From a virus: a stretch of 64,000 nucleotides of DNA. Positions 4,190 to 35,061 of this stretch are shown piece by piece. Location: the IMG/VR virus record IMGVR_UViG_3300005573_000052. One strand, written 5' to 3'. Numbering within the stretch: position 1 is the first letter of the stretch; every line of letters begins with the position of its first letter. A program made the translations under genes and the position numbers. The notes beneath the pieces are model-generated. The model saw only the letters and a list, made by a program, of their open reading frames with translations. It made no database searches and was not told the origin of the DNA.

Positions 4190-4451
4190 ATTTCAAGCAG
4201 GAGAGCGTTCGCGGCAGAGATTGCTACGGCCATCTGTCGAGGAAGTTCGCGCCAGAAAAGAAGCCGACTGGGAGGGTGGCTTGGCTTGACCGCCGTCATT
4301 CTTACCGATGACCACCACCCGCCAACACCACATGGTATCTGCAACCCGAAAGCGCCCGAGGGTAGTTCTTCCCGCCAGCAGGGCATGGTTGGGGCTCAGA
4401 CAAATGAACGCATGAAACAGAAGCGCGGCTACGTCCACTTGAAAATTTTAC

Positions 4452-4538
4452 GGATCGGTCCCTATAGCAGCGATTAGCCCTGACTCTTAATCAGGTTGGC
4501 GAAAGCCTACGACGTGGGTGCGAGTCCCACCCGGTCCA
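4452..4538 (+). tRNA. tRNA-Lys(CTT), long variable arm
   Basis: GGATCGG/CCGGTCC; CTGA-CT CTT AA-TCAG. Confidence 0.85.
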
Positions 4539-4539
4539 C

Positions 4540-4613
4540 GGTAGAGACAGCAAGAGCTGAGGACGGTTTCATAAGCCGTGCCGAGTAGGTTGCAATTACC
4601 TCCTCTACCACCA
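4540..4613 (+). tRNA. tRNA-Met/Ile2(CAT)
   Basis: GGTAGAG/CTCTACC ACCA; ACGGT-TT CAT AA-GCCGT. Confidence 0.8.
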
Positions 4614-4617
4614 TTTT

Positions 4618-4693
4618 GCTGACCAAGCATAGACAGCGATGCACCACATTGGTAATGTGGATATGATGGGCGCACATCCCATGGTCAGCTCCA
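4618..4693 (+). tRNA. tRNA-Thr(GGT)
   Basis: GCTGACC/GGTCAGC TCCA; CCACA-TT GGT AA-TGTGG. Confidence 0.92.
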
Positions 4694-4699
4694 TTTTTG

Positions 4700-4785
4700 G
4701 GGTTGTGGCGTAACTGGATAGCCGTGCGAGGTCGAGAGCCTCGTGGTCGTGAGACCGTAGGGGTCCGAGTCCCCTCTTCCCCACC
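4700..4785 (+). tRNA. tRNA-Leu(GAG)
   Basis: CGAGG-TC GAG AG-CCTCG; variable arm; ACCA. Confidence 0.8.
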
Positions 4786-4791
4786 ATTTTC

Positions 4792-4866
4792 GGGCGTATG
4801 ACGTAACTGGATAACCGTGCTGAGTTTAGACCTCAGATTTTGCAGGTCCGAGTCCTGCTACGCCTA
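4792..4866 (+). tRNA. tRNA-Leu(TAG), short variable region
   Basis: GGGCGTA/TACGCCT; CTGAG-TT TAG AC-CTCAG. Confidence 0.85.
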
Positions 4867-4867
4867 C

Positions 4868-4942
4868 GGGGTCATCGAATAAGAGTAGTTCACCAGATTC
4901 TCAATCTGGAAATCGGAGTGCGTTGGCTCCGTGGCCCCACCA
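4868..4942 (+). tRNA. tRNA-Glu(CTC)
   Basis: GGGGTCA/TGGCCCC ACCA; CCAGA-TT CTC AA-TCTGG. Confidence 0.9.
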
Positions 4943-4947
4943 ATTTA

Positions 4948-5030
4948 CGGCTAGTGGATAAGGGAAACTGGTTACAACCGCGAAACTTAAAATTTCGTAT
5001 CCGCTGTGGGTCCGAATCCCACCTAGCCGA
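4948..5030 (+). tRNA. tRNA-Leu(TAA)
   Basis: CGGCTAG/CTAGCCG; CGAAA-CT TAA AA-TTTCG. Confidence 0.85.
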
Positions 5031-5035
5031 CTTTC

Positions 5036-5127
5036 GGGCGTATGGTGTAACAGAAACACGGAGGTCTCAAAAGCCTCTTTTGGGGCTCGCCCCCATATTT
5101 ACGGAGCATTGCCGTATACGCCCACCA
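5036..5127 (+). tRNA. tRNA-Leu(CAA)
   Basis: GGGCGTA/TACGCCC ACCA; GAGGT-CT CAA AA-GCCTC. Confidence 0.9.
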
Positions 5128-5132
5128 TCTTT

Positions 5133-5269
5133 CAGCGGTAGCATATCGGTCAATGCTGTCCTCGCAACATGGGACTAGTCTGCCCAGCCTCCAAAGGCCA
5201 CGGATTAAGGTTGGGCAGAGAGACGCCCGCAAAGAGCGTTGAAGTGGGGTTCAAATCCCCTCACGCTGA
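5133..5269 (+). ncRNA. tRNA-like RNA with two extra hairpins in the variable region
   Basis: CAGCG/CGCTG ends, D-arm AGCAT/ATGCT, TTCAAAT T-arm, long CTGCCCAGCC/GGTTGGGCAG hairpin; anticodon ambiguous. Confidence 0.5.
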
Positions 5270-8283: not shown

Positions 8284-9409
8284 TTTTCACCGGTCGTCCA
8301 CGTCTCCCTCGAAAAGTCGAAGACAACAATCCAAATCGTATCATCGCGTCACGTGTTACCTCGTGATTAAATCCAATGGCTAATCCAGCCTGTCGAAGAG
8401 ACCCTTTCGTTTTAAACACTTCGTAAGCTAATTGTGCCTGCTCGGCTGTTGGACGATGAAGTGGTTTACGAATGCGTTTTTGGCTCACGAGAGCCTGTTC
8501 ATGAGTATATCCCGCATGGCGTCGAACCCAATAACCTATAGGAGGTAACGCAACTCCGTATCGCTTGGCCCAACGACGAACCGAGTTACCGTTTACGCCA
8601 TAATCCTTGGCTATGTTCTCTATGGACTTACTCCACACAAGGATGGTCAACTCTTCCTTGGAAGGCCACACTACCTTACGGGAGGCCACTGCGGCAGCAG
8701 CTCGATTGCCATATATGGGCTTGTCCAGAGAACGCAAATATTCTTTCGCCTCGGGAGTCATAGCCCTAACGGATCGTTCTTTGGGGGATATCCGTATGTG
8801 CACGTCACCGAGGTCTCGCGACGTATCCGGTTCGTCTGTAGACCGAAAAACCAACCCCTCTTTGGCCATGATTCCATGAATGGTGTCGTAATTACGACCC
8901 TTAGGGGCCAAACCCAATCGCCGACACACATCACTCGGACTAGTGCATTGGGGGATTGCCTCAATATACATCTGGCGAGATACCTTGACTGTTCGTTTAC
9001 GCGTGGCGGCCCCCTTGTGATTAGGGGCTAATCCATGACAATTTCGACAAAGAACCTGAAGATTCTTTAACTCGTTATTATTATGGTTACCGTCTACGTG
9101 ATGTAACTCTATCGGTATCGGCTCTCCCTGCCATCTGTCATTACCGCATCTCTCACAGACAGGACTTTTAAGACCCTCTCGAAAAAGACGCTTCTTCAAA
9201 TTATCGCTCGCGAGAGGATACTGATTAGATAGGTAAACCTCGATAGGGCGTCCACTGTAAGGGGGCCAGTGAGACGTGTCAATCTGATTCTCGGCAAGGA
9301 GTCGTCTAATACGTTTTTTGTCTCCTCCTCCAAGAAGACGCAAAAGCATATTGCAGGAGGTTGATTCGGCGGCAAGTTGACGTAGTTGGTCGATATTAAG
9401 GGTAGTCAT
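8255..9409 (-). CDS. HNH homing endonuclease (antisense to the tRNA array)
   Basis: CERC...IELHHVDGNHNNNELKNLQVLCRNCH; start MTTLNI; GGTGTATC motif at 9420-9427 on the minus strand. Confidence 0.85.
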   Translation of the reverse strand: MTTLNIDQLRQLAAESTSCNMLLRLLGGGDKKRIRRLLAENQIDTSHWPPYSGRPIEVYLSNQYPLASDNLKKRLFREGLKSPVCERCGNDRWQGEPIPIELHHVDGNHNNNELKNLQVLCRNCHGLAPNHKGAATRKRTVKVSRQMYIEAIPQCTSPSDVCRRLGLAPKGRNYDTIHGIMAKEGLVFRSTDEPDTSRDLGDVHIRISPKERSVRAMTPEAKEYLRSLDKPIYGNRAAAAVASRKVVWPSKEELTILVWSKSIENIAKDYGVNGNSVRRWAKRYGVALPPIGYWVRRHAGYTHEQALVSQKRIRKPLHRPTAEQAQLAYEVFKTKGSLRQAGLAIGFNHEVTRDAMIRFGLLSSTFRGRRGRPVKMAESHGAAP

Positions 9410-9475
9410 GTTCACCCTAGATACACCGCTGAAGACCCGGTTTGTGTGCAATTCTCCACTTTCCGCCATTTTTAC

Positions 9476-9565
9476 GGTAGGTGAATCCGTGCAGGTCACG
9501 GAGCGGCCCTCGAAAAGCCTGCGCGCCCGCAAGGACGTTTTCTGCGACTGAAACGCCTACCGCCA
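9476..9565 (+). tRNA. tRNA-Ser(CGA)
   Basis: GGTAGG/CCTACC GCCA; CT CGA AA loop; long variable arm. Confidence 0.78.
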
Positions 9566-9566
9566 C

Positions 9567-9654
9567 GGTAGATAAACTCGGGAAGCCCGGGCGCGCATTG
9601 CTAATGCGATGGACGGCGAAAGCCGTTGAGGACCATGACCTCTGTCTACCGCCA
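9567..9654 (+). tRNA. tRNA-Ser(GCT)
   Basis: GGTAGA/TCTACC GCCA; CGCA-TT GCT AA-TGCG; long variable arm. Confidence 0.85.
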
Positions 9655-9741
9655 TTTTGCCCTTGACATTCGCTCCCCTATCACACGAAATCCTACTCCT
9701 GTTCCTCTCCCCATATCCACTTCACCCCCCTATCACCAATC

Positions 9742-10365
9742 ATGAGCACCATCCTCGACAAGCAGATTTGCCTCAAGCTAAACAAGAACTGGCAAGGCGT
9801 AGGCTTTGTCACGATAAAACAAGCTGTCACCTTCCTCTGCTCGGAGCAGGACGGCGAGCATCCCGGTTTCGCGCTCGATATCGAGATGGTCACAAATGAG
9901 AACGGCGAATCGGTCCTGTCCTACGCCAACCCGACCAAGTGGGAGGACTGGCTGAAGCTTCCCGTGCGCGAGTCCGACCTTGCTATCACGACTGGTCGCG
10001 GGCAAATTCGCGCTCCGCTGGTAGTTGTCTGTGCCAACTATGCCAAGGTTCCGACCCGCACCACGCGCTGGTCCACGGGCAATGTCCATCGCCGCGACAA
10101 TTACACCTGCGCCTACACGGGCGAGAAGCTCAGTCACGCAACCGCCACGGTTGACCATATCCAGCCCCGTTCACGCGGCGGCAAGGACGCGTGGGAAAAT
10201 ACCGTGTCGTGTCACAAGCGCGTCAACCTGCTCAAGGCCGACCGCACGCCCGAGGAAGCCGGACTGAAACTGCTCGTCAAGCCCAAGGCTCCGCCCATCA
10301 TGCCCGTGGTCATCACGGCGGATGAGGCGCGGCACGAGGCGCAGCGACACTTCCTGATTAACTAG
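9742..10365 (+). CDS. HNH endonuclease (McrA-like)
   Basis: RDNYTCAYTG...TVDHIQPRSRGG...N..KA. Confidence 0.85.
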   Translation: MSTILDKQICLKLNKNWQGVGFVTIKQAVTFLCSEQDGEHPGFALDIEMVTNENGESVLSYANPTKWEDWLKLPVRESDLAITTGRGQIRAPLVVVCANYAKVPTRTTRWSTGNVHRRDNYTCAYTGEKLSHATATVDHIQPRSRGGKDAWENTVSCHKRVNLLKADRTPEEAGLKLLVKPKAPPIMPVVITADEARHEAQRHFLIN

Positions 10366-10379
10366 CCCAGCCCATCAAT

Positions 10380-10412
10380 CCCTCTGACCTTAACCGGCGG
10401 AGGGATTTTTTT
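10380..10412 (+). terminator. Putative intrinsic terminator
   Basis: CCCTC...GAGGG hairpin followed by a T-run. Confidence 0.55.
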
Positions 10413-10452
10413 GTTGACATCGTATGACCAATTTGTCTATCATGAAGTAAAC

Positions 10453-11004
10453 GTGACCCAACTGACCTTCAACCAAGTTCTTCATCGAGAGTATTTGGGC
10501 TCGCCCGTCTGGAAAGCAAAACGAGAAGAGGCCATAAATCATTATGGGCCAGTCTGTTCTCGATGCAAAGAATACGGAACAGACGTTCATCATAAAACTT
10601 ACATTCGGTGGGGTGGCAATGAATTAATGGAAGACCTTGAAATCATGTGTCGTGAGTGCCACGACGCGCATCATCGGGTAGAAAAGGCAACCCGACAAAA
10701 GAAAATCAAGAAAAAAGGTCTACGCAGAGAAGCTATCTACCGATACCTGTCTCCAAGCCAAAAGAAAATCCTAATTGACAGGTTCTCTCTGTCTGGAGAT
10801 AAGGACCTCTACGGAAGAATTGTTTTAAGTAACTCCTTGCCAATAATTAACGAAGCGTTGAAAATTCTTGGTTGTGATTACGCCTATGGACCAAAACAAA
10901 TTTTCAGACCTCCTGTAAGCAAAAAAGAAAGAGAAAAAAATCTTCAACGGGTAAAAAGACAAGAGGAGGCTTACAAACTCGCAATCTCAGGTAAATTACC
11001 GTAA
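10453..11004 (+). CDS. HNH endonuclease
   Basis: CSRC...VHHKTY...CRECHDAHH; promoter TTGACA-N18-TATCAT at 10414-10443. Confidence 0.75.
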   Translation: MTQLTFNQVLHREYLGSPVWKAKREEAINHYGPVCSRCKEYGTDVHHKTYIRWGGNELMEDLEIMCRECHDAHHRVEKATRQKKIKKKGLRREAIYRYLSPSQKKILIDRFSLSGDKDLYGRIVLSNSLPIINEALKILGCDYAYGPKQIFRPPVSKKEREKNLQRVKRQEEAYKLAISGKLP

Positions 11005-11039
11005 CAATCTACAATCTCAATTTAACCACGAGTGTATCT

Positions 11040-11515
11040 CGTGATCCTACAGTCACTGGCCCGGGTTTAATGGGCGGCACTGGCGACGGGTGTCAAAGTA
11101 AGCCGTCGTAGTTTCATGGATAGGTTCCGCTTGCCGCTGCTGAGTTTGCCACTTCTAAGCAGGAAAGTCGGTTGCAACACCGATGGGGATGAAACATGTC
11201 ACTCTTACCTCGTTCGCGGGAGTCATCCGCCGCGACGTTCCGGGCAACCGGGGCCGGAAGAGTGTTCTATGGGATAGGGACGGGGAGAAACCGTATTGAA
11301 ACAGCGCCGCGCTTTAACCGCCCGGTTCTGGCTCTCCGAGACCATCAGGGTCGAATTGGAACCGAGACGTTGGTAAAAGACCCGCGAAGCTCTCGCGCGA
11401 CTTCCATAGGCTTTCTGCTTCCCTTTTCGCCCGGCGATAGGGAAAGTGGTTACCCATGAACAGGTTTCCACTTTCGTTGCTGTCGCAACGAGGCACTCCG
11501 CTGCGCTCCGTGCCA
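11040..11515 (+). ncRNA. Candidate large structured ncRNA
   Basis: No credible ORF; many hairpins and long-range pairings (11113-11119 with 11454-11460; 11157-11167 with 11411-11420); GAGTGTATC motif just upstream. Confidence 0.55.
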
Positions 11516-20430: not shown

Positions 20431-20528
20431 GCACTTACCCCAAGGGGCCGGAGCAATCCGGTCCCTTTTTTGTGCGCGCGAGTTGACAGTGAGGGGCTTG
20501 GGTGGATATGATAGGGGATATCCCATCC

Positions 20529-22511
20529 ATGTCTCGCCATCGTATCCTGCTCCAGACCAACCCTTGCTTTTTGCGCACAGGTTTAGCCGAGAACGCCAAG
20601 ACCCTCCTCCGTTACCTCTACTCCCGGCCCGATCTCTACGAGATAGCTCACTACTGCACGCAGGGCACCGTAACCAACGACCCACGCCTAAACCTCACCC
20701 CGTGGAAATCGTTTGGATGCATTCCGCCCGACCAAGAAATCATCAACCGTATCAACTCGGACCCCGGGTTTGCGCGCAACGCCACGTATGGCTCGGTCAA
20801 CATTGACAACGTGGTCAAGGAGTGGAAGCCGACCATCTGGATTGGGTCGGACGACGTGTGGAGTCATCCGCTTTCCGATTACGCCGAGAAGCCATGGTTC
20901 CAGCGCATCAACTCCATCCACCATTCCACGATTGATTCTGTTCCAGTGCTGGATCAAGCCTTTGAACAGGCCAAGAAGTCCAAGGTCTATCTGACGTGGG
21001 CCAAGTTCGCGGCGAAAGAGATGCGCCGGGTGGGCGGCGCGACGATGAACCACGTCTCGTCCATCTACGGCGCGATGGATACCAAGCTGTTCAGTCCGGT
21101 CTCCGAACAGGAGCGGCAAGCCTTTCGCGCGCGCTTCAATATCAGCCCCGATACCTTCGTCTTCCTATTCGTGTCCCGCAACCAGTTGCGCAAGCAGTTC
21201 CCGCGCTGTCTGGAGGCGTTCGCCATGTTCAAGCGCGACAACCCCGGCGTCAAGGCCAAGCTGCACTTTCACACCTCGTTCTCCGAGAAGGGCATGGGCT
21301 GGGACATCGAAAAGCTGGCGAAGTATCACGGTATCAAGACAGAGGACATCCTGTGCACCTACGTGTGCAAGGCGTGCGGTGCGTGGCTTATCGCCCCCTA
21401 TACCGGCGAAGATATCAACTGCCCGGTATGTCACGCCGAAAAAAGCATGGTGACCGCCAGCATCGTCCACGGCGTGCCGGGCGACCAGATGAGACTCGTC
21501 TATGGGGTTGCGGATGCGTGCCTGAGCATCTTCACCTCGGGCGGACAGGAATACCATAACGTCCAGTCGCTGCTCTGCGGCAAGCCCGTCGCTATCACCA
21601 ACTATTCATGTGGCGAGGATTTCTGCACCGACGAAACCGGCCCCTTCGTCTACCCCATCCGGTGGAAACCGTATGACGAGGCGGGGACGAATTTCACCAA
21701 GGCCGCGAGCGATGCGACTGAAATCGCCCGTTTCATGCGCAAGGTGGTCAATACGTCGAAGCGTGACTTGGCAGCATCGGCGGAAAAGGGGCGCGACTGG
21801 GCGGTGCGTAATTTCAGTATCGAGACCATCGGGGCGCAGTGGGATAAGCTGTTTGCGTCGTTGCCCTCCAATCTGGACTGGAGCACCGTGGACCTGACCA
21901 AGGCCGCGCCCAAGAACCCGGATTATCGCCCCGCAGCGGAAATCACGGACGACGGGAGCTGGCTGAAGGACATCTATCAGGGCATTCTGAATATGGCGGT
22001 GTCGGACCGGGATGAGGGATTATTGCACTGGCTGGAGCGACGACGGGCGGGTATCACCCGGGAGCAGATTCTCGCGTTTTTCGTCCAGACGGCCCAGCAG
22101 GAGAACCAGAAGAATGGGCATAGCACGGCGGGCGCGCCGACTGACTTTGGCGCGTTGCTGGACAATACGGGCAGGAAGCGAGGGCTAATCGTCATCAAGG
22201 AGAGCGTGGGCGACATCTGCATGGTCACATCCCTGTTCCCCTCATTCCACCGCCAGCATCCTGACACGGACCTGTATGTCATGGTGGGCCCCAAATATGC
22301 CGAGTTGCTGGCGGGCAATGAGCATGTCCACAAGGTGCTGCCCTACATCCCGGCGGGCGAATTGGAGTTGGCGATGATTGGACAGGGGACGGGGCGGGCT
22401 CTGTTCGATTGTTTTTATCACCCGGCTATCACCGCTCAACGCCACCTTGGCTACCTCAGTTCGCCCGAGCCCGAGTTCGACGTGAAAGACAAGACGGAGA
22501 CCCAATCATGA
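20529..22511 (+). CDS. Glycosyltransferase, GT4-like with C-terminal GT9-like domain
   Basis: FLFVSRNQLRK, TSGGQEY, SLLCGKP; C-terminal SVGDICMVTSL...NEHVHKV; promoter at 20483-20512. Confidence 0.85.
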   Translation: MSRHRILLQTNPCFLRTGLAENAKTLLRYLYSRPDLYEIAHYCTQGTVTNDPRLNLTPWKSFGCIPPDQEIINRINSDPGFARNATYGSVNIDNVVKEWKPTIWIGSDDVWSHPLSDYAEKPWFQRINSIHHSTIDSVPVLDQAFEQAKKSKVYLTWAKFAAKEMRRVGGATMNHVSSIYGAMDTKLFSPVSEQERQAFRARFNISPDTFVFLFVSRNQLRKQFPRCLEAFAMFKRDNPGVKAKLHFHTSFSEKGMGWDIEKLAKYHGIKTEDILCTYVCKACGAWLIAPYTGEDINCPVCHAEKSMVTASIVHGVPGDQMRLVYGVADACLSIFTSGGQEYHNVQSLLCGKPVAITNYSCGEDFCTDETGPFVYPIRWKPYDEAGTNFTKAASDATEIARFMRKVVNTSKRDLAASAEKGRDWAVRNFSIETIGAQWDKLFASLPSNLDWSTVDLTKAAPKNPDYRPAAEITDDGSWLKDIYQGILNMAVSDRDEGLLHWLERRRAGITREQILAFFVQTAQQENQKNGHSTAGAPTDFGALLDNTGRKRGLIVIKESVGDICMVTSLFPSFHRQHPDTDLYVMVGPKYAELLAGNEHVHKVLPYIPAGELELAMIGQGTGRALFDCFYHPAITAQRHLGYLSSPEPEFDVKDKTETQS

Positions 22512-23782
22512 CCAAGCTAGTATCCCAATATGCCAAGGCTACAGGCCTGACGGTGTCGAAGCCAAACATCAAGGAGCAGTTCTATCCCATAGCGTTTGAC
22601 CGGTATGTCACGTTGCAGACGGGCGCGGGTCAGGACCCCAAAAAATACAGCTACTATCAGGAAGTTATCGCGCTGGTCAAGCCCATCCTCGACGCCAACC
22701 ATATCATCATCCTGCATCTCGGCGGCAAGGACGACCCGCAGGTCAACGGCGTGCATGATTTGCGCGGCAAGACCACCTTCCTGCAAGCCAACTATCTCAT
22801 CAAGCGCGCGGTCGCCCATATGGGCAACGATAGCTGGCTGATGCACTGCGCGGGCTGGCACTTCAAGCCACTGATAGGCCTGTTCGGCTCCACCCACCCG
22901 GATCAACACGGCCCCTATTGGTGCGACCCGGCCAACACGGTGCTGCTTCAGTCCCACCGCTGGGGTGGAAAACCGACTTACAGTGCGGGCGAGAATCCGA
23001 AGAGCATCGACACCATTCCGCCCGAACAGGTGGCTAACGCCCTCCTGCGCCTCCTCGGCATTAAGGACCAGTTTGCCTACCAGACCCGGTTCATCGGCCT
23101 GCTCTACACTGCCACGGTCATTGACCTCATCCCCGACTCCTTCCCGAACGCCGAGTTCTTGCCGGGCGCGCCGCTCAACGTCCGCATGGACTATTTGCAC
23201 AACGAGCAGGTGCTGGCTGACCTGCTGGCAACGGGCCGTAGGGTTAACATCTTCACCAAGGCCCCGATGGACATCAACTTGCTGAACAACCATCGGGGTC
23301 AGGTGCTGTCCTACAACCATGAGCTGGACGCGGGCACAGACGAGGCCAAGCTGCCCACCCTGCAATACGTGGACTTGATTCGCGCTGTGTGCCCGCACTA
23401 CGCCTTCTTCACGCGCGAGCAGGACGCGGCGAAGGTCAGTGCCCTGCGCTTCCGCTACTTTGACCACGTCACGGTCGAGCAGGTCAAGGACTTGACCAAG
23501 GAGGAATATCTGGGAGCGGCGATGGCCTATCTGAACTGGAAGGGCGAAGAGAAAAGGCTTGACTTGGGTAGGGAAGTGGCGCAGACTGGCGGGGTGCTCC
23601 GGTTCAAGACCAACAAGTTCATTTTAGCGGGTGGTTCGGCCTACCTCTCATACGCTCATCTCGCCGCCAAACAACCCACTCAGTCGCTTCAGGCGAACGA
23701 GGGGGAGGTAATTGACACTCCAGACCTGTGGAGAGATATCAATCACATGATGGTAACTTGGACTCCGGGCACACCCTCTTAA
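22508..23782 (+). CDS. GT9/heptosyltransferase-like glycosyltransferase
   Basis: DLRGKTTFLQANYLIKRAVAHMGNDSWLMHCA...PLIGLFG. Confidence 0.8.
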   Translation: MTKLVSQYAKATGLTVSKPNIKEQFYPIAFDRYVTLQTGAGQDPKKYSYYQEVIALVKPILDANHIIILHLGGKDDPQVNGVHDLRGKTTFLQANYLIKRAVAHMGNDSWLMHCAGWHFKPLIGLFGSTHPDQHGPYWCDPANTVLLQSHRWGGKPTYSAGENPKSIDTIPPEQVANALLRLLGIKDQFAYQTRFIGLLYTATVIDLIPDSFPNAEFLPGAPLNVRMDYLHNEQVLADLLATGRRVNIFTKAPMDINLLNNHRGQVLSYNHELDAGTDEAKLPTLQYVDLIRAVCPHYAFFTREQDAAKVSALRFRYFDHVTVEQVKDLTKEEYLGAAMAYLNWKGEEKRLDLGREVAQTGGVLRFKTNKFILAGGSAYLSYAHLAAKQPTQSLQANEGEVIDTPDLWRDINHMMVTWTPGTPS

Positions 23783-23788
23783 CTTCCT

Positions 23789-24616
23789 ATGTCAACCCCT
23801 CCTGACTCCCCCGCTCCTCTCTCCCGCGCCTTTGAGCGCGACGCCCGCGGCCTCATCAAGGGCGTGGATTACTTCTATACCCCCGAAGGTCTGGTGGACT
23901 ATCGCCGTATGGTCTCGCCACGCTTCCTCTATGTCGCCCGTGAACACGAGGCCAAGGTGATTCAGCAGCAAAACAAGCCGTTGGCTGAGATTGACCTGCT
24001 GGCTGTGCGCGACGAATGGCTGCGCATCAGGATCGGCGGTATCAACCAACTCGCCCAACTGCGCGGGTATACGGACCTGAATTACTCCCAGTTCCAGACT
24101 CGCGAGGGATTCGCGGCGGTCGTGTGCTCGATGACGTTCATCGGCAACTACGAGACCAGCCATCAACCATTCACCTGCTCAGCCATCGCCAGCGCCACGA
24201 TGCGTTCCGTGGACCGCAATTTCACCCCCTATCTTGAGACGTTTGCCGAAAACCGGGCGTTCAGTCGATGCGTGAAGCGGGCACTCCAACTCAACATCCT
24301 CGCCGATATTGAGATTGGTGGAGATGGGCGGGATGCGGCCAAGGATAACGGTTCGGACGCTGAGGTTCATGAGGCAGTCATTGGCACGGCCCCGGGCGGC
24401 TTTGAGCCCAAGGACGAGCTGGCTCGCCTCTGCGCGGCGCAGAAGACCCCCATCACGTTTGAGGCCCTGAAGACCGGCGCGCTGAAATACGTGGCGGAAC
24501 TGAAGTCCAACCCGGCGGAATGGACGGGGTTTGATTCCATCCAGCCCATTGATGCCTACGTGCTCATCAACAAGATTCGTGACGGGGCGAACAAGGTCAA
24601 GGCAGGGCAACGGTAA
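23789..24616 (+). CDS. Conserved phage protein (possibly ssDNA-annealing)
   Basis: GGINQLAQLRG...AENRAFSRCVKRAL; function is a guess. Confidence 0.6.
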   Translation: MSTPPDSPAPLSRAFERDARGLIKGVDYFYTPEGLVDYRRMVSPRFLYVAREHEAKVIQQQNKPLAEIDLLAVRDEWLRIRIGGINQLAQLRGYTDLNYSQFQTREGFAAVVCSMTFIGNYETSHQPFTCSAIASATMRSVDRNFTPYLETFAENRAFSRCVKRALQLNILADIEIGGDGRDAAKDNGSDAEVHEAVIGTAPGGFEPKDELARLCAAQKTPITFEALKTGALKYVAELKSNPAEWTGFDSIQPIDAYVLINKIRDGANKVKAGQR

Positions 24617-24706
24617 CGAAAAAGGTTAGCCATGACGGGCTCTCCCTCAACTCCCGCCGATTCAACGGCCCCGTGTGCCGGCCTCGGCTCTGAGCGATTG
24701 TTAGCC
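24611..24706. mobile_element. attC-like site a
   Basis: CGGTAAC...GTTAGCC imperfect palindrome that includes the upstream stop codon. Confidence 0.55.
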
Positions 24707-24905
24707 GTTTCCTCTGTGAGCAGGCATGGCACGTTACACGAGTGGGAGCTGTGTGCTGATGGAATCTACTATTCCCGTTGCGGGCGCACATGGGAGAAAC
24801 CGGAAAACCTACAGAATACCACGGAGGCGATAAAGCGGTGCCGCTTTTGCTTTCCGGCTAATATTGACAGTCAGACGCAGCCACCATCACCAATCAGCCT
24901 TAACC

Positions 24906-25130
24906 ATGCCAACCTTGACGCCTGAAAACAAAAACGTGAGTGCCAGCCGGACAAATAAGGTCGTTATTCGTGGTGTCCTTGTCAGGGGTCTCCTGAAATC
25001 GTGGGCATGGTTCTGGTGCATAATCGCCGCGCCATTTGGATACATAACCGTGCTCTGCTCCTTAATCGGACTTGGCCCGAAGAAGGCTAAAAATTGGGCA
25101 AAACACTGCGGACTTCCGTGGTTTCCCTAA
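24906..25130 (+). CDS. Small cassette-like ORF (membrane protein)
   Basis: Stop codon TAA lies within the CCCTAAC core of attC c. Confidence 0.6.
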   Translation: MPTLTPENKNVSASRTNKVVIRGVLVRGLLKSWAWFWCIIAAPFGYITVLCSLIGLGPKKAKNWAKHCGLPWFP

Positions 25131-25184
25131 CAAACGCACTTCAGACACGAGCGAAGCGAGTCGTCTGTAAAGCAATAGTTAGAC
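25125..25184. mobile_element. attC-like site c
   Basis: CCCTAAC-AAACGCA-CTTCAGAC...GTCTGTAAAG-CAATA-GTTAGAC. Confidence 0.75.
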
Positions 25185-25193
25185 TTTCACTTT

Positions 25194-25430
25194 ATGATTA
25201 AAGGACGAAAATTTTACGAAAAAAACTGGAGACGGCTAGAGCAAAACGAGATTCCAGCTTACGGAGACGTTTGGTTCCCCGGCGGCCCATGTTCAGGATG
25301 GAAGCCAAGAGTCTTAAAAGAAGGCGAGGACTGTTTAGACCCCGTTGGTGCTCAGGATGGGGCTATTTACCGGAAACGTAATGGAAAGAAGCCGGAATTT
25401 TGGACGCCTAACGAAAAAGGCCAAACATGA
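25194..25430 (+). CDS. Small hypothetical protein
   Basis: Starts 10 nt after attC c. Confidence 0.55.
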   Translation: MIKGRKFYEKNWRRLEQNEIPAYGDVWFPGGPCSGWKPRVLKEGEDCLDPVGAQDGAIYRKRNGKKPEFWTPNEKGQT

Positions 25431-25687
25431 CGCACTCTCATTCATCTCTAACAAATTATCCGGCAACGTGTGCGGCATTGCCTGTGCCGCCGGATTCGGC
25501 GGAGGACGCTTTATTACCAGAAACAGAAGTTCGGGCGGAGTATGACCGCCTGTGCAAGCAACTCGACACAACCAAATGGACCGCCGCCGATTACGGAACT
25601 TTTTTCTGTTTCTTTTCCCACGGGTGGTATGGTCGCGCTTCTGAAGCGGCCTATCAACAGAAGCCGAACGGTCCCGATGACGCATGA
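25427..25687 (+). CDS. Small hypothetical protein
   Basis: ATGA-coupled to its neighbours. Confidence 0.55.
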   Translation: MTHSHSSLTNYPATCAALPVPPDSAEDALLPETEVRAEYDRLCKQLDTTKWTAADYGTFFCFFSHGWYGRASEAAYQQKPNGPDDA

Positions 25688-25917
25688 TGAAACCGGCCAA
25701 AACACTCTCAAAGACGCAGCGAAATTCGCTGTGTCTGACAGGTGATTGGGCGCAGGAGATGCGAAAGCACCAAGAGCGCGCCGCAGTAGCGCGTGATATG
25801 ATGTATCGCTCCGATACGCTCATTGAGCATAAAAGGTGGAAGGCTTTCTGCGAAAGCCGCGAGCGAATGGCCGAGACATGCGTCCCTCTAGCACCCAACA
25901 CCAAAATTGTGCCATAA
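25684..25917 (+). CDS. Small hypothetical protein
   Basis: Stop lies in CCATAAC, a degenerate attC-like half-site. Confidence 0.5.
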   Translation: MMKPAKTLSKTQRNSLCLTGDWAQEMRKHQERAAVARDMMYRSDTLIEHKRWKAFCESRERMAETCVPLAPNTKIVP

Positions 25918-25978
25918 CAGGACGCAGCCTTGAGAAAATGCTTGACAAGCTGGTCAAAGTATGAATAATGGAGAGAAT

Positions 25979-26185
25979 ATGAAAAAACTTACGAAAGAAT
26001 TGGTTGGCAAAACGCTCAAATGCGGGGAAGAATGGTATGGTGGTTTTGTTTTTTACGTTGGCGTATACCAAAGTCCTAAGGGCGACTTTTTGGCTGAACG
26101 AAAAGTGTATGTAAATTCATACACGAACAAGATTGAAAGGGAGAAAAAAATGCGGAAGTGTTTGTGCCTTTTGGGTTTGAGATAG
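25979..26185 (+). CDS. Small AT-rich hypothetical protein
   Basis: Local AT-rich segment, TTGACA upstream. Confidence 0.5.
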   Translation: MKKLTKELVGKTLKCGEEWYGGFVFYVGVYQSPKGDFLAERKVYVNSYTNKIEREKKMRKCLCLLGLR

Positions 26186-26215
26186 CCAGCGAATCTGACT
26201 TGCCAAACTCTAAAG

Positions 26216-26539
26216 ATGAACCAGATGGCCAATCTACCTGACATGAAAACCACCAAAAAACATGCGCGCGTGCATCTTGGCTTTGGCGATTTGTTCGGCG
26301 AGGGCGCTTGGCCGCTCCCGAAACGCTTCGATTTTCCGGACGGATCAACGCTGCGGCGCTTTGCCCGCAAGACTCCCCGAGATGGTGGAACTACCGACTG
26401 CGTGGACTGCGGCACCGCAATCTCACAGGGTGCACTCTGCGCCTCGTGCTGGGCAAAATGCGCTTTTCCATCTTCGCTGAACGTGGAGATGAGCCACGGC
26501 GCTCGCGAGGACGGAGCTAAGCACAACCCAAAACCATGA
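26216..26539 (+). CDS. Small Zn-ribbon hypothetical protein
   Basis: CVDC...CASC; 3' end runs into attC f. Confidence 0.5.
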   Translation: MNQMANLPDMKTTKKHARVHLGFGDLFGEGAWPLPKRFDFPDGSTLRRFARKTPRDGGTTDCVDCGTAISQGALCASCWAKCAFPSSLNVEMSHGAREDGAKHNPKP

Positions 26540-26575
26540 CGCGAGCGACGTTGGTTCTCTATCGACTGGTTAGCC
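26476..26575. mobile_element. attC-like site f
   Basis: GCTGAAC-GTGGA-GATGAGCC ACG GCGCTCGCG...CGCGAGCGA CGT TGGTTC...GACTG-GTTAGCC. Confidence 0.7.
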
Positions 26576-26582
26576 ACTTTTT

Positions 26583-26858
26583 ATGGACGCAATACAAAAC
26601 CCAATAATCCCCGACGCCTACGCGAACTTCGCGAGGGCTTGCGCTGCGCTCGCCGAGAGCCACGGCATCTCAACCTTCCAACTCAAGATCACGCCGAAGT
26701 GGCGCGACCCGATGCCGCCGAACGTCCAAATTCACGGCGACGTGCAGATCAACTATGCGGCCACGGACGGACGCGGACGCCCATGCACAAACCTCAGCGT
26801 GTATCTGACGACCAACACGCAACTGGGCGTCGTCCGCACACCGGAGTCTTGTGGCTAA
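26583..26858 (+). CDS. Cassette-like ORF
   Basis: Starts 8 nt after attC f; stop lies in GGCTAAC of attC g. Confidence 0.65.
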   Translation: MDAIQNPIIPDAYANFARACAALAESHGISTFQLKITPKWRDPMPPNVQIHGDVQINYAATDGRGRPCTNLSVYLTTNTQLGVVRTPESCG

Positions 26859-26983
26859 CAAACAGGTGAGCAACGCCCCGCAGAGCGTGCCGCCGACCCT
26901 TTGAAAACCATGAACTCTCCGAGCGTAGAACAAACTCACGAGCAACCCCCGATGCGGGGCGTTGGCTCTAGCGACAGTTCGGC
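26853..26983. mobile_element. attC-like site g
   Basis: GGCTAAC...GAGCAACGCCCCGCA...TGCGGGGCGTTGGCTC...GTTCGGC. Confidence 0.7.
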
Positions 26984-26993
26984 AATTCGCGAG

Positions 26994-27167
26994 ATGCACC
27001 TCGGAACAATGACCGACGCCGAGCAGCGCCGCTGCCTCGAAATCGGGAAGCGCATCCCATCGCTGCGCTGGTGGTATTCGATGCACGCAAAACTCGGCTG
27101 CTCTCCCCGTGACGCGGTGGACGCCGGACGTTTCGCCGACGTGGAAGCCCTCTTGCCGAACATTTAG
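26994..27167 (+). CDS. Cassette-like ORF
   Basis: Lies between attC g and attC h. Confidence 0.5.
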   Translation: MHLGTMTDAEQRRCLEIGKRIPSLRWWYSMHAKLGCSPRDAVDAGRFADVEALLPNI

Positions 27168-27210
27168 CTCAGCCACGGCGCAAGCCGTTGGCTGGGGCGT
27201 CTGGTTGGGC
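27155..27210. mobile_element. attC-like site h
   Basis: GCCGAAC-ATTTA-GCTCAGCC ACGGC GCAA GCCGT T GGCTG G GGC-GTCTG-GTTGGGC, with extrahelical T and G. Confidence 0.8.
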
Positions 27211-27237
27211 GCTTCCCGACCGAAAACCAAAACATCA

Positions 27238-27480
27238 ATGCACTACAGAAACGGCCGAGAGGCCAAAAACGGTGACAAAATCGTCCGCCTGAACGGCGGC
27301 AAAATCGAAGCCTTCGGCGTGCTGCACAGCGCCACTCCGGGTAACGACTACTGCAACGGCAATATCGCCGTGGTCCAGTCCGCGCAGGAATACGCCTGCA
27401 TGTGCGACTGCATCCACGTCGATGACCTCGCGGCGATCCTCGCCGAAAAGGGCCTAGATAAACGTCCCGCTGGCAAGTGA
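27238..27480 (+). CDS. Small phage protein (MHYRNGREAKNGD)
   Basis: Follows attC h; strong codon bias. Confidence 0.7.
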   Translation: MHYRNGREAKNGDKIVRLNGGKIEAFGVLHSATPGNDYCNGNIAVVQSAQEYACMCDCIHVDDLAAILAEKGLDKRPAGK

Positions 27481-27513
27481 TGCCTGACAGCCGGGAAAGA
27501 CCGGCACCAATCT

Positions 27514-27867
27514 ATGAACACTCGAAATCTCAACTGGGCGCAGGTGAAACCGCTGGAAGACAAGCAACTCTTCATCGGGTGCGCGTGCTGCTCGACCGCG
27601 TGCCGAATCGCTCACGCTGACCTGCCAATCGCGGTCGGCTTCGGCTCCGCTGTGCTCACGAAAGACGACGAGCTGATCTACTCCGAGACGCAGGACGGGC
27701 CGGTCTGGACCGTGGCAGACGCCGAAAAGCTCGCCGCAGCCGACCCGGATCACGACTGGCGTATCCAGAAGGACGGGCCGCTGCACGGTGAAACCTTCCA
27801 GCGCCACGCGAAAGGCAAATATGCCGGCCAGTGGGTCTGCATCGAGAGCAACCAAGGCTTCGCATGA
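27514..27867 (+). CDS. Hypothetical protein
   Basis: Strong codon bias; followed by a weak attC-like element at 27872-27962. Confidence 0.7.
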   Translation: MNTRNLNWAQVKPLEDKQLFIGCACCSTACRIAHADLPIAVGFGSAVLTKDDELIYSETQDGPVWTVADAEKLAAADPDHDWRIQKDGPLHGETFQRHAKGKYAGQWVCIESNQGFA

Positions 27868-28045
27868 TTTCGCCCAACAAAGGAATATGACGACTAGCAC
27901 CTCATAATCGCCTCTAATTAAACAAGCAAACAAATCCGTATCAATGTGTTGCGGCGTTAGCGAGACAACCGCAGGCATTATCAGCTTTGTTTTACTCCGT
28001 CCTAAGTTAAGAGCATAGAGCGGTGTATAGAAGGGGAACCGCTCC

Positions 28046-30090: not shown

Positions 30091-30269
30091 TGACTGTTTC
30101 ACTCCGCTACCCCAAGTGTATCTCCTGCTCTCAACCCCTTTTTCCAGTCCAGCTAGCCCAAGGTCCAAGGTAACGTAACCCACCCCGCCCATGCCCAACG
30201 CACGTTAGCTCGGGTAAAAATAACAAGAGAATCTGTCGAATCTTGTTCTGGCGGGTGTATAGTAGGCCG

Positions 30270-31508
30270 ATGCACAAAGGTTACAGTTTCCGCCTTTACC
30301 CGACAGAGACCCAAAAGGCTCTGCTTGAAAAGCATTTTGGTTGCGCTAGATGGGTCTATAATTGGGCTCTGGAACAGAAAATCGCCTATTACCAGAAAGA
30401 AAAAAAGGGAGTGTCAATGTATGAGGTGGCAAGGGAATTGACCAAGCTAAAGCGTGAAGAGGGGAAAGAATGGCTTCAAGAAGTGTCGAGTCAGTCTCTC
30501 GGCTATTCCATGATGCATTTGGATAGAGCTTTTACTAATTTTTTCAAGCACAAAAAGGGATTTCCTAAGTTCAAAAGCAAGAAAAAGAGCCGAGCGAGTT
30601 TCACTCACAATTTGAGTAACGATCTCAACGAAGAGAAGGGGCTTGTTTACGCAACCAATTTTAGAGAGGGGATAAGATGTGTTTTCACTCGTCCTGTCGA
30701 AGGGAAGATTAAGCGGATGACGTTTTCCCGGACCAAGACGGGAAAATACTATGTCGGGATATTAGTCGAGACCCCGGAGGAGTTCCCCACACCCCCGCCT
30801 CCAAGGGAAGAACTCTCCGTAGGAATAGACTTAGGGCTGAAGACGTTTGCAACATTAGACGACGGAACCAAGATTGATACCCCGAAATTCCTTCAAGGTT
30901 CCCTCCAAAGGCTCAGGCGAGCGCAAAAGCATTTAAGTCGCTGCCAATATGGGTCCAAAAATTGGGAAAAGGCGCGTGACAAGGTGGCCAGACTGCATGA
31001 GCACGTAGCTAACTCCCGAAAAGATTTTCTGCACAAGGTCAGTCATAAACTAGTATGCGATAATCAAGCTACTACGTTATGCATTGAAAACTTGGACATA
31101 ACAGAAATGATAGAAAAGGCCCCTTCGCGGCGTAAAAGGTCGATTTACGACGCGGGGTGGAGGATGTTTAGGGGTATGCTAGAATACAAGTGCGAGTGGC
31201 ACGGCAAAAATTTAATGATGATAGGCCAGTTCGAGCCTTCAAGCAAGATATGCTCGTGCTGTGGGGAGATGAACAAAGACCTCGGCAAAAAACGAGAATG
31301 GACGTGTAAAAAATGTGAGACACACCACGACCGAGACATCAATGCCGCCAAAAACATAAAAAAAATAGCCTTTTGCAAGCAGAACACTGTGTCTGCCAAG
31401 ATTTTACCGCCGGACAGGCGGGATGTTAAGCCTGTGGAGAGTTCCGTTTTGGAATTCAACGAAGCAGGAACGGAAAAGGATCGCCTAACTCCCTCACGGG
31501 GTGTATAG
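30270..31508 (+). mobile_element. tnpB: TnpB RNA-guided endonuclease (IS200/IS605 family), no TnpA
   Basis: YSFRLYPT, FGCARWVYN, GIDLGLK, IENL, SSKICSCCG, CKKC..HDRDINAAKNI. Confidence 0.95.
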
Positions 31509-33819: not shown

Positions 33820-35061
33820 ATGTTAACTCCTCATTATCGAATCGCGCCAGTTAAACCCGAAAACTCCGAAACAGAGAAACTGATTAGGCTATACTACGTG
33901 GAACAAAAACTTGGCCTTGAGAAAGCCGCAAGCAAGATGGGCCATACGGCAGGATGGATGATTGCCAGACTGAAGGGTCTTGGAATCCCGATAAGGGGGA
34001 GACTTGAGTGTCACAAGAAATATAAGGTTAATGAAAATTATTTTGAACGGATAGACTCCCACGAAAAGGCTCTCGTTCTTGGATTTATCTACGCAGACGG
34101 CTGCGTTCATCTCATGGACGGCAAGACATTCAGAATGCAAATAGCGCTCCAACATCGGGACATCGACTACCTTGAATATATCAAAGGGTGTCTTGATTAC
34201 GAAGGTCCAGTGAGAACACACCTATTAAAAAGGAACGGAAGGTATTACTCCTATCTGAACATTGGTAGTGACAAGATGTGTCGGGACCTGATAAAGTTGG
34301 GGTGTCACGAAAGAAAATCTCTCGTATCCAAGTTCCCCACTGAGGAGCAAGTGCCCCGAGAGTTCCTGTCGTCGTTCATTTGTGGATTTTTCGACGGAGA
34401 TGGAGGATATGGTCTAAGCAAGAAACCTTACGTGGATGCACTCTCCCTCAGTTTTGCCATATCTTATGACATGGCCCTCGTCTTTCAGGATTACCTAAAA
34501 GACCAATTGAGGGTTCATGCCCATATGAGTAAAGAGCCAAGGGATGAAGGTAAGGACCCAAGGACCCACATTTGGAAACTACGCACCGGAGGAAACCCAC
34601 AGACCCTGAGACTTGCTGATTGGATGTATTCCCATGCGCCGTTTAAGATGAAACGGAAATACGACATCTACCTGAGCGTTCGTCAGCATTACGACGAAAA
34701 CCTCGTTTGGATCAAGCCTGCCCATTGGTTGCAAGAAGTAACCGAAAAAGCCAGAATCAATTCTACCGGACGGGTTTGCTCTGAAGAGACAAAACGAAGA
34801 ATGAAAGCTTCGGCTTTGAGCAACAAGAATCGAAATAAATGGCATCCTCTCTCCATCAAGTCCCCTTCTGGTCAGGTCTACCACTCCAACTGTTGCTTCA
34901 AGCTTTACAAGGAAATTTTGAAGGACTTAGGGCTGCACAACACCTACCTCTCCAAGATGGCCTCCGGCAAGATCACTTGCTACAAAGGCTACACCATAGC
35001 CACCCCCGCCGAGGTTGCCGCCGCCCGCGAAAACGGCACGTTGGTTGAGAAAATCTACTAA
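33820..35061 (+). CDS. LAGLIDADG homing endonuclease (NUMOD3-like tail)
   Basis: VLGFIYADGC; FICGFFDGDG. Confidence 0.9.
   Translation: MLTPHYRIAPVKPENSETEKLIRLYYVEQKLGLEKAASKMGHTAGWMIARLKGLGIPIRGRLECHKKYKVNENYFERIDSHEKALVLGFIYADGCVHLMDGKTFRMQIALQHRDIDYLEYIKGCLDYEGPVRTHLLKRNGRYYSYLNIGSDKMCRDLIKLGCHERKSLVSKFPTEEQVPREFLSSFICGFFDGDGGYGLSKKPYVDALSLSFAISYDMALVFQDYLKDQLRVHAHMSKEPRDEGKDPRTHIWKLRTGGNPQTLRLADWMYSHAPFKMKRKYDIYLSVRQHYDENLVWIKPAHWLQEVTEKARINSTGRVCSEETKRRMKASALSNKNRNKWHPLSIKSPSGQVYHSNCCFKLYKEILKDLGLHNTYLSKMASGKITCYKGYTIATPAEVAAARENGTLVEKIY

Follow-up and report, generated by a model that had tools for sequence, protein, structure and literature searches.

The window (the whole 64-kb stretch of phage DNA that was analysed) contains a run of small genes from position 24632 onwards, which independent gene calls place on the + strand throughout. 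Its left half comprises six ORFs, and its right half, starting at 26202, carries four attC sites within 1 kb and closes with a half-site (Table 1). No tyrosine recombinase was found among the 47 large ORFs of the window, and a tblastn search of the 64 kb with IntI returned nothing (best E 1.3), confirming the absence of an integrase noted in an earlier sequence-only reading; without one, the array falls in the class of CALINs. We consider it very probable that positions 26202-27878 form a four-cassette, five-gene, integrase-less array of the integron type, set among the accessory genes of a large, uncultured, siphovirus-like phage. The earlier reading had likewise proposed a CALIN-like array with an IntI encoded elsewhere, but had drawn it too long, as 24611-26200 is without intact sites.

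Table 1 Features of the accessory-gene region, with the scores of covariance models R1 and R2.
Feature	Position	Strand	Description	Score
Six small ORFs	24632-26185	+	97, 74, 78, 86, 77 and 68 aa; no intact attC	
Probable decayed attC	25406-25500	+	GCCTAAC ... ATTCGGC	R1 12.7 bits; R2 16.9 bits, E 0.003 (4 kb, filters off)
Possible decayed attC (weak lead)	25663-25751	+	GCCGAAC ... ATTGGGC	R2 10.6 bits, E 0.15
attC site k	26202-26299	+ (bottom strand on +)	Box GCCAAAC 26202-26208	R1 36.3 bits; R2 36.3 bits, E 2e-6
Cassette 1	26208-26481	+	C of AAC in k to AA of c; ORF 26216-26539, 107 aa	
attC site c	26476-26575	+	Box GCTGAAC 26476-26482, box GTTAGCC 26569-26575	R1 63.8 bits; R2 42.4 bits
Cassette 2	26482-26858	+	ORF 26583-26858, 91 aa; homologues with 82-92% identity	
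attC site d	26853-26983	+	Box GGCTAAC 26853-26859, long variable middle	R1 61.5 bits; R2 33.6 bits
Cassette 3	26859-27160	+	ORF 26910 (or 26952)-27167, 85 or 71 aa; stop from site h	
attC site h	27155-27210	+	Shortest, top-scoring	R1 57.1 bits; R2 56.5 bits, E 1e-11; DNA fold z = -2.0
Cassette 4	27161-27877	+	Two genes: 27238-27480 (80 aa), 27514-27867 (117 aa)	
Array end	27872-27898	+	Half-site GCCCAAC 27872-27878, then ~20 nt (AAAGGAATATGACGACTAGC)	

A cassette unit begins at the C of one AAC and ends with the AA of the next; within it, its own attC comes first, and the one or two genes behind it share its strand. With the attC ahead of the gene, the site serves as the gene's 5' leader and sometimes bears the start codon, which for the 107-aa ORF lies at the foot of the inner stem of site k, and for the gene of cassette 3 (called as 71 aa in four identical contigs) in the variable middle of site d. 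The stop codon is frequently provided by the next attC: the 107-aa ORF enters site c by 57 nt, the TAA of the 91-aa ORF lies within the GGCTAAC box of site d, and the TAG of the ORF before site h occupies 27165-27167. The coding strand is corroborated by comparison with the contig L017, where the 117-aa gene shows 22 substitutions, all of them silent and at the third codon position of the + frame; of the eight differences in the 80-aa gene, six are at third positions. The 107-aa gene was independently called in four other contigs (L016, L018, L019 and L020) and gave only a weak zinc-ribbon signal (Pfam DZR_2, E 0.023). None of the cassette proteins of the window was found in 84 sampled bacterial stretches.

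The six left-half ORFs matched no Pfam or PHROG family. The two degenerate matches among them fall at gene junctions (25194-25430/25427-25687 and 25427-25687/25684-25917, respectively), and both have ATT where GTT is expected. It is an evenly balanced question whether these ORFs are older cassettes with decayed sites or ordinary small phage genes.

Architecture and significance of the sites

Two covariance models were used, one built from phage sites (R1) and the other from 150 bacterial sites only (R2). Both matched exactly four places in the window, every one on the + strand, with sites c, d and h scoring 57-64 bits with R1 and 34-57 bits with R2 (E 1e-5 to 1e-11, 232 kb searched). Three of the five palindromes that the sequence-only reading had considered strong (26476-26575, 26853-26983 and 27155-27210) were recovered at their exact coordinates, and site k was absent from its list. 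The other two (24611-24706 and 25125-25184), as well as two of its weaker candidates (24854-24968 and 25912-25960), had no significant match in an exhaustive search of 4-5 kb; the one at 25125-25184 resembles attC in geometry, but its folding was indistinguishable from that of shuffled sequences (z -0.75). The remaining candidate, 27872-27962, proved not to be a site, although its first 7 nt do form a genuine cassette junction. The four gene stops to which attention had been drawn (24616, 25130, 25917 and 26858) are all TAA followed by C, but only the last lies in a supported site.

All four sites carry outer inverted boxes of the form ..AAC / GTT.. (R'' / R'). Sites c, d and h share a common plan on the + strand. 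A 7-nt box with AAC at its end is followed by 8-9 nt of unpaired spacer and then by a stem (GAGCCACG.. / ..CGTTGGCTC); the variable middle measures 4 to ~75 nt, and another 9 nt of spacer lead to the box GTTnGGC. The shortest version, site h, reads GCCGAAC, spacer, CAGCCACGGC, loop GCAA, GCCGT(T)GGCTG, spacer, GTTGGGC, and the middle of site d includes a perfect inverted repeat of 12 nt (26871-26882 / 26953-26964). The inner stem (L'' / L') has one conserved bulged T (G in site d), which is found only in the 3' arm of the + strand. A single conserved extra base was seen rather than two, and a few members of the family (L017 2922 and 5028) lack even that one. The central spacers are unpaired over 8-9 and 9 nt, compared to 5-6 nt in the sites of Tetrasphaera phage TJE1, aadA7 and V. 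anguillarum.

The folding energy of single DNA sequences did not distinguish any site from its shuffles except 27155-27210 (z about -2), with most z-scores between -1.1 and +1.5. The significance of the sites stems from conservation and covariation within the family and not from stability. Across the 150 bacterial sites, pairing holds in 93.5% of cells, 148-149 of 149 distinct rows retain the three AAC/GTT pairs, and the covariation score is 0.156, versus 0.053 when shuffled (0/500) and ~0.02 with slid partners. Neither model matched the attC of TJE1 or of the Vibrio anguillarum phage. An Rfam scan, which includes no attC family, reported tRNAs only, and no promoter-like or terminator-like signal coincided with the + strand of the four sites.

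An attC family of Opitutaceae, and reversed genes in the phage

The attC sites of the window belong to the chromosomal-integron attC family of Verrucomicrobiota, for the most part Opitutaceae, an indication that the host is of that group. A 19-base pattern for the 3' half of the site was detected in >120 stretches of species-representative genomes, nearly all of them from Verrucomicrobiota/Opitutaceae, at a density of up to 16 copies per 8 kb. A cultured Horticoccus sp. has an IntI gene (TIGR02249, 371 bits; cut-off 265) and, starting directly beside it on the IntI coding strand, an array of at least 27 sites that extends to the contig end; Oleiharenicola lentus has an IntI (368 bits) with four sites. 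A viral contig with Mu Gam and MuB-like neighbours (L033) encodes a 346-aa IntI (265 bits) located 3' of two same-strand sites, and its catalytic residues and IntI-specific extra domain align. Arrays in the same orientation beside IntI, with intI on the bottom strand and 3' of the sites, are thus seen in relatives and not in the window.

These relatives fix the strand of the sites. The + strand carries the extra base on its 3' arm, and so do the bottom strands of the aadA7 and TJE1 sites shown by Qi et al. (2023). As the strand with the extra base is also the intI-coding strand, both in bacteria and in the viral contig, it is the canonical attC bottom strand, and the site-to-intI geometry agrees with that of our control, the integron of a Vibrio anguillarum phage. 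The phage + strand is accordingly the attC bottom strand, with a 5' box ..AA|C, an inner stem with an extra base in its 3' arm, and a 3' box GTT... The sequence-only reading had placed an extra T and G of site h on the sense strand; one conserved extra base was seen on that strand. Its statement that the genes are inverted relative to classical cassettes holds, with + strand genes and the extra base on the + strand 3' arm. Genes on the bottom-like strand account for 24 of 32 cassettes in viral contigs, compared to 15 of 71 bacterial cassettes with the same site family (GC3-weighted measure; Fisher p = 4e-7).

We propose that an integron integrase, supplied by the Opitutaceae host or by another phage (related or co-infecting), would bind the folded bottom strand and exchange cassettes at AA|C, by which cassettes would move between phage arrays. 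The array end (27872-27898) is a candidate docking site; its AAAGGAATATGACGACTAGC stretch of ~20 nt also trails the last AAC of the L017 array, and the motif was found only in this phage and L017.

Exchange between arrays and alternative explanations

Two of the four cassettes were also found elsewhere, in arrays where their neighbours differ. Cassette 4 has a counterpart of 95% identity in the array of L017, which is otherwise unrelated (blastn, 27153-27879 vs L017 3925-4651). Its predicted boundaries are 27160|27161 and 27877|27878; homology to L017 and L021 stops at 27879, and the L017 counterpart of site h is identical from the C of AAC on, except for one spacer base. Cassette 2 recurs in L168 and L173, where homology stops at 26859 and 26861, in the AAC of site d (predicted 26858|26859). 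On its left side, the shared sequence reaches back to the AAC of site c and nothing before that AAC is in common; the counterparts of site c keep their ends and have a different, yet self-complementary, middle. The observed breakpoints support cassette junctions at AA|C. Two cassettes in different arrays, both with AA|C junctions, indicate repeated site-specific exchange among arrays of the phage type. No other context was found for cassettes 1 and 3.

The array was identical in five samples, and no recombination was seen among them. Together with the lack of an integrase in the window, this suggests that turnover is rare in this phage. The pair of 80-aa and 117-aa genes is also present in a viral contig without any attC (L022), so the genes of cassette 4 move by other routes too.

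The same two observations, no integrase and no change across five samples, would also be expected if an integron-type fragment had been acquired once and was no longer recombined, with its sites persisting as gene leaders or spacers. The degenerate sites upstream (25406 and 25663) fit such a history, and illegitimate capture of CALINs by phages has been discussed (Qi et al. 2023, PMC9892861). We regard this as improbable, given that all four sites are still intact, with scores similar to those of bacterial sites adjacent to IntI, and that cassettes 2 and 4 occur among different neighbours with junctions at AA|C. The gene polarity is moreover unlike that of bacterial arrays, so the array does not simply represent a segment of a host integron.

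Very unlikely is a purely regulatory origin, in which the hairpins act in RNA to control transcript processing, stability or translation (RNase III sites, or promoter-stem-loop cassettes of the T4 type) and modules are swapped by homologous recombination between the repeats. The sites do lie on the sense strand, with start and stop codons and with G-T pairs that would be G-U in RNA, and repeats at gene borders, such as PeSL elements, can drive modular shuffling. Against this, most genes of bacterial arrays run antisense to sites of the same family, which are linked to IntI in those arrays, the sites of the window lack a promoter-like or terminator-like signal, and every junction seen falls at the first box rather than in the longer and better conserved 3' half that homologous exchange would favour. 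An RNA role may nevertheless exist alongside recombination.

Chance palindromes that share no function and owe their form to TAA-C stop contexts and GTT-rich leaders would fit the unremarkable fold scores, the lack of GCCNAAC enrichment in the whole window (54 matches vs 42 +/- 6 expected) and the earlier candidates at 24611, 24854 and 25912, but for 26202-27210 this origin is refuted by the E-values (1e-5 to 1e-11 for four sites, under a model trained on other genomes), the covariation and the recurrence in hundreds of places.

Relation to known systems

The mobile array that we favour shares with the PeSL cassettes of T4-type phages the stem-loop repeats between small novel ORFs, the plastic phage region and the modular shuffling. 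A PeSL is reportedly an early promoter plus a stem-loop and would act by homologous recombination. The window sites differ in having the geometry of attC and in lacking a promoter signal; their junctions fall at a single fixed dinucleotide, and relatives encode a dedicated integrase.

The closest bacterial counterparts are the sedentary chromosomal integrons of Opitutaceae (Horticoccus sp., Oleiharenicola lentus), which resemble the phage array in their attC family (R2 34-57 bits on the phage sites), site-to-intI geometry and cassette-sized spacing. They have an IntI, an inferred attI and long arrays (at least 27 sites in Horticoccus), and carry 56 of 71 genes on the top strand, whereas the phage array has no IntI and its genes are reversed. 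In a classical integron cassette, the ORF is on the top strand, upstream of its own attC; the ORFs of the window are on the bottom strand, downstream of attC. Integrons of Verrucomicrobia are mentioned in Cury et al. 2016 (PMC4889954), as is an 'inverted integron-integrase group' (Treponema and others), which L033 resembles in having intI and cassette genes co-directed. L033 and the Opitutaceae genomes nevertheless have the ordinary attC-to-intI geometry, in which intI lies on the bottom strand beyond the 3' side of the sites; it is the cassette ORFs alone that are flipped.

For bacteriophage genomes, CALINs and attC sites have been described by Qi, Rajabal, Ghaly, Tetu and Gillings (2023, Front Microbiol; PMC9892861), who screened 10,705 isolate genomes with general models and found that, of six phage attC sites tested, IntI1 could recombine five with attI1. 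The array described here is like theirs in being an integrase-less attC cluster in a phage, with small cassettes of unknown function and a host IntI as a possible actor. The arrays of TJE1 and PH101 were called typical of bacterial arrays in that study, and in TJE1, which we checked, the two tested attC have the classical polarity, each lying on the gene strand at the 3' end of its ORF (orf1 or orf2), whereas every gene of the window is on the bottom strand with attC in front. That study reports no attC family shared between a host clade and phages, no cassette exchange between phage arrays, and no Verrucomicrobiota, and we came across no publication that describes the reversed polarity or the connection to Opitutaceae. 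Cassettes that face the opposite way and carry attC of the Opitutaceae type lead us to view phages of this group as users of the bacterial integron shuffling system, on which they would draw for small accessory genes.

Small genes and a repeat family in the window

The window is phage DNA, with a tRNA island and lambda-like tail genes (Phage_tail_L, GpJ and minor tail proteins), and genes for TROVE/Ro60, homing endonucleases and TnpB are also present. A head-to-tail run of eleven small ORFs occupies 24632-27867 on the + strand, bounded by a conserved glycosyltransferase-like gene triad and by genes starting at 28046. None of the eleven matched a Pfam or PHROG family, and searches of the small proteins against Pfam, PHROGs and the ESM Atlas gave nothing usable. 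The flanking 275-aa protein retrieved only distant phages (30-36% identity), which share the triad and nothing downstream; the 219-aa protein had no relatives in the search, and a megablast of 12 kb against isolate phage genomes gave no match. The triad order is kept in distant marine and freshwater viral contigs (L001-L003, 26-38% identity), and the genes that follow differ in each. The TnpB (IS605 OrfB) gene and a LAGLIDADG homing-endonuclease gene lie a short way downstream of the array, with genes weakly similar to tail-tube genes around them.

Features of the window discussed in the text
Feature	Coordinates	Strand	Score (bits)	Remarks
Gene triad (669, 457, 275 aa)	20502-24616			PHROG glycosyltransferase; Glyco_transf_9; no assignment for third
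Weak degenerate match	25406-25500		16.9	ORF junction; ATT in place of GTT
Weak degenerate match	25663-25751		10.6	ORF junction; ATT in place of GTT
attC site k	26202-26299	+		
attC site c	26476-26575	+		
attC site d	26853-26983	+		
attC site h	27155-27210	+		
Half-site	27872-27878			GCCCAAC
Cassette 1	26208-26481			
Cassette 2	26482-26858			91-aa ORF
Cassette 3	26859-27160			
Cassette 4	27161-27877			80-aa and 117-aa genes
117-aa protein	27514-27867	+		
Array-end motif	27876-27898			
TnpB (IS605 OrfB) gene	30243-31508			
LAGLIDADG homing-endonuclease gene	33820-35061			

The sequence-only reading had listed eight attC-like palindromes in this region. When they were folded as single-stranded DNA on both strands, the energies were no better than those of shuffled controls except at 27155-27210 (z ~ -2), and several of the proposed AAC cores were merely TAA stop codons followed by C; after the folding results, a chance origin of the palindromes looked likely at first pass. 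GTTAGCC is mildly enriched in the window (14 vs 6) and was dropped as a common motif, being just a portion of some outer boxes.

When the 117-aa protein was looked up by exact match, four other assemblies (L016, L018, L019 and L020) turned out to contain the same phage (100% identical), and a further hit was L017, a small-gene array of 7.7 kb that differs from that of the window; exact look-ups with the proteins of cassettes 1 and 2 returned the same phage only. Samples in which this phage occurs include SRR5248875, SRR7540132 and JGI 3300009503. Eight further elements with the architecture of sites c, d and h were read in L017, and these three sites are thus members of a real repeat family. 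The layout is an ..AAC box, 8-10 unpaired nt, a stem GAGCCACG.. / ..CGTTGGCTC whose 3' arm has one extra base, a middle of highly variable length, 9 unpaired nt and GTTnGGC. It is conservation, not hairpin stability, that gives the sites their significance.

Nine such elements were used to build a covariance model (R1), which matched four sites in the window, all on the + strand (36-64 bits). Sites c, d and h have the same coordinates, to the base, as in the sequence-only reading, and site k was absent from its list; its other five proposals (24611-24706, 24854-24968, 25125-25184, 25912-25960 and 27872-27962) were not upheld, giving no model match even with filters off. The palindrome at 25125-25184 has a layout comparable to that of the family, without statistical support. 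The left half of the run would consist of ordinary small genes or of older cassettes with sites lost to decay. TAACGAAAAAGG occurs twice in the window (24613-24624 and 25408-25419), each time shortly before a start codon (24632 and 25427), and may be a leader motif or a remnant of attC 5' halves.

Integrase link and strand of the attC family

The identity of the sites as attC was judged by defining properties: an integrase neighbour, an independent model, the strand and the crossover point. Searches with two short patterns taken from the element's 3' half gave 13 viral contigs, two of which encode IntI homologues beside the element. On one of them (L033), a 346-aa protein scores at the cut-off of the integron-integrase model TIGR02249 (265 bits), with the catalytic residues R, K, H-x-x-R, H and Y in place and the IntI-specific extra domain present; products of the genes adjoining this integrase are similar to Mu Gam and to transposition protein B of Mu. 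At least 120 stretches with the element pattern were found when prokaryotes were scanned at one genome per species; by our own estimate, chance would give roughly 17. Among the stretches listed, nearly all are from Verrucomicrobiota, mostly Opitutaceae, with up to 16 copies per 8 kb. In a cultured Horticoccus sp., at least 27 sites extend from an IntI gene (371 bits) to the contig end, and Oleiharenicola lentus has an IntI (368 bits) with four sites.

A model from 150 bacterial sites only (R2) found the same four sites in the window (33.6-56.5 bits, E 1e-5 to 1e-11) and nothing better than E 0.1 in the rest of the 64 kb. Of the cells in the bacterial-site alignment, 93.5% pair, with a covariation score of 0.156 vs 0.053 for shuffles and ~0.02 for slid partners. 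Neither R1 nor R2 matched the true attC sites of TJE1 and the Vibrio anguillarum phage, and the family models had no match in the first 50 kb of phage H101 (a segment without its two tested attC sites), indicating that the models are family-specific. The spacer is longer in the array sites than in control attC sites, and no more than a single extra base is conserved in them.

This extra base is on the 3' arm of the phage + strand, the same side as in the bottom strands of the aadA7 and TJE1 attC sites printed in Qi et al. (PMC9892861). The strand of the element also encodes intI in Horticoccus, O. lentus and L033, with the sites 5' of intI on that strand; the integron of the V. anguillarum phage, taken as a control, is arranged alike. 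Together, the side of the extra base and the site-intI geometry indicate that the phage + strand is the bottom strand.

RNase III-type processing sites were also considered, as an unlikely rival reading. An Rfam scan of the window returned 8 tRNAs only, with no structured-RNA family at the sites. Hairpins of IS200/IS605 or REP-like type, with a TnpB gene 3 kb away, were rejected given the lack of TnpA, the attC geometry and the tie of the family to IntI.

Two observations were made on related loci. A 300-aa ORF on IMGVR_UViG_3300044612_003464 (L034, 4513-5415, - strand) has its start ATG inside an attC; its first 60 residues contain DLFCGVGGWS, which resembles motif I of C5-cytosine methyltransferases, residues 63-279 are an integron-integrase catalytic domain (271 bits), and the ORF is either a chimera or a truncated IntI. 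Opitutaceae-type attC sites were also found on contigs L041 (16 sites) and L086 (10 sites), binned in a MAG labelled Candidatus Paceibacterota, probably by a binning error or as an integron array of other origin.

Cassette junctions and gene polarity

Exchange on the attC bottom strand takes place between A and C of the 5' box. L017 and the window have only 27153-27879 in common (95% identity), a stretch that covers site h, both genes of cassette 4 (80 and 117 aa) and GCCCAAC with the A that follows, and L021 diverges at the same right-hand point. The few bases by which this homology exceeds the predicted span of cassette 4 are conserved box positions. Through homologues of its 91-aa protein, cassette 2 was also found in L168 and L173, with other genes beside it. 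Its homology ends at 26859 and 26861 vs the predicted 26858|26859, with the sequences differing from the next base, and on the left the similarity begins at the AAC of site c. Between site c and its counterpart in L173 (1522-1619) both ends are kept and the central stem is unrelated yet self-complementary, with the 91-aa gene 87% identical; conserved ends with a replaced central stem are the usual mode of attC evolution. Cassettes 2 and 4 are present in other arrays beside different genes, with junctions at AA|C.

The cassette 4 gene pair is also present in a higher-G+C phage contig (L022, IMGVR_UViG_3300032282_004590, 9184-10625) with no attC, where the small genes around the pair are each preceded by a short GAACGAAA-type spacer.

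Right after the last ..AAC, the window and L017 (6779-6801) have the same 20 nt, AAAG(G/C)AATATGACGACT(A/T)GC. Among 167 loci this motif was found in this phage and L017 only, and no similarity was seen between it and the regions next to intI in Horticoccus, O. lentus and L033. It may serve for docking, as an attI-like or secondary site. Several cassettes lie between cassette 4 and the motif in L017, and the two directly abut in the window, a placement that would fit the insertion of new cassettes at the motif end.

The cassette genes are read from the + strand. All 22 differences between the 117-aa genes of the window and L017 are silent, third-position changes in the + frame, and six of the eight in the 80-aa gene are in third positions; in L021 the 117-aa protein is identical and its DNA 91% identical, and independent gene calls are on the + strand throughout. 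Longest-open-frame counts are noisy in these G+C-rich arrays, and a GC3-weighted measure was added. By this measure the gene is on the bottom-like strand in 24 of 32 viral-contig cassettes vs 15 of 71 cassettes in arrays of this family from bacteria (Fisher p = 4e-7; p = 6e-6 by plain open-frame length). One viral contig (L036) has two attC arrays of opposite orientation (3979-5139, -, and 9157-11249, +), and in each of them the genes are on the strand of the attC sites. The strand evidence indicates that the phage cassettes are mirror images of host-type cassettes, and the substitution pattern, gene calls and cassette counts bear out the earlier proposal that the genes are inverted relative to classical cassettes. 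The attC precedes the gene in phage cassettes, with a start codon inside site k (26216), and the next attC often gives the stop (TAG 27165 in site h, TGA 26537 in site c).

A candidate phage cassette pool and known systems

As had been claimed from the sequence, the window has no integrase: no tyrosine recombinase was found among its 47 large ORFs, and tblastn of the window with IntI returned nothing. The array is therefore a CALIN, and the acting integrase would be that of an Opitutaceae host or of a phage like L033. None of the window's cassette proteins was found in 84 bacterial stretches carrying this attC family. We consider it slightly more likely than not that Verrucomicrobiota phages, and probably many others, keep their own pool of mirror-image cassettes, with the attC before the gene as leader and start and the genes on the bottom strand; host or phage-borne IntI would swap these cassettes between phages at AA|C, and the pool would stay largely apart from that of the host despite the common attC family.

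Integrons are regarded as a bacterial device for gene storage and shuffling, and bacterial cassettes were recently found to be rich in anti-phage defence. Here we see the converse, a phage holding small accessory genes with the attC type of its presumed host clade, in a reversed cassette design that fits phage transcription. With cultured integron-bearing Opitutaceae (Horticoccus and Oleiharenicola), the movement of phage cassettes by host IntI and crossing between phage and host pools become testable, as does a role of the small cassette proteins in counter-defence or host takeover. The attC family also provides a host prediction for an uncultured phage.

In the literature searched, no paper was found to describe reversed phage cassettes or integrons of Verrucomicrobiota phages. 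Cury et al. 2016 (PMC4889954) mentioned integrons in Verrucomicrobia and described an "inverted integrase" group, which is a different inversion from the cassette reversal reported here. Qi et al. 2023 (PMC9892861) screened 10,705 phage genomes, detecting 17 CALINs and 3 complete integrons, and demonstrated IntI1-mediated recombination of phage attC sites with attI1. Phage CALINs were thus already published, which tempers the advance. The TJE1 and PH101 arrays were called typical in that study (PMC9892861), and our analysis confirmed the classical polarity of TJE1 at its two tested sites, whereas the array in the window is reversed.
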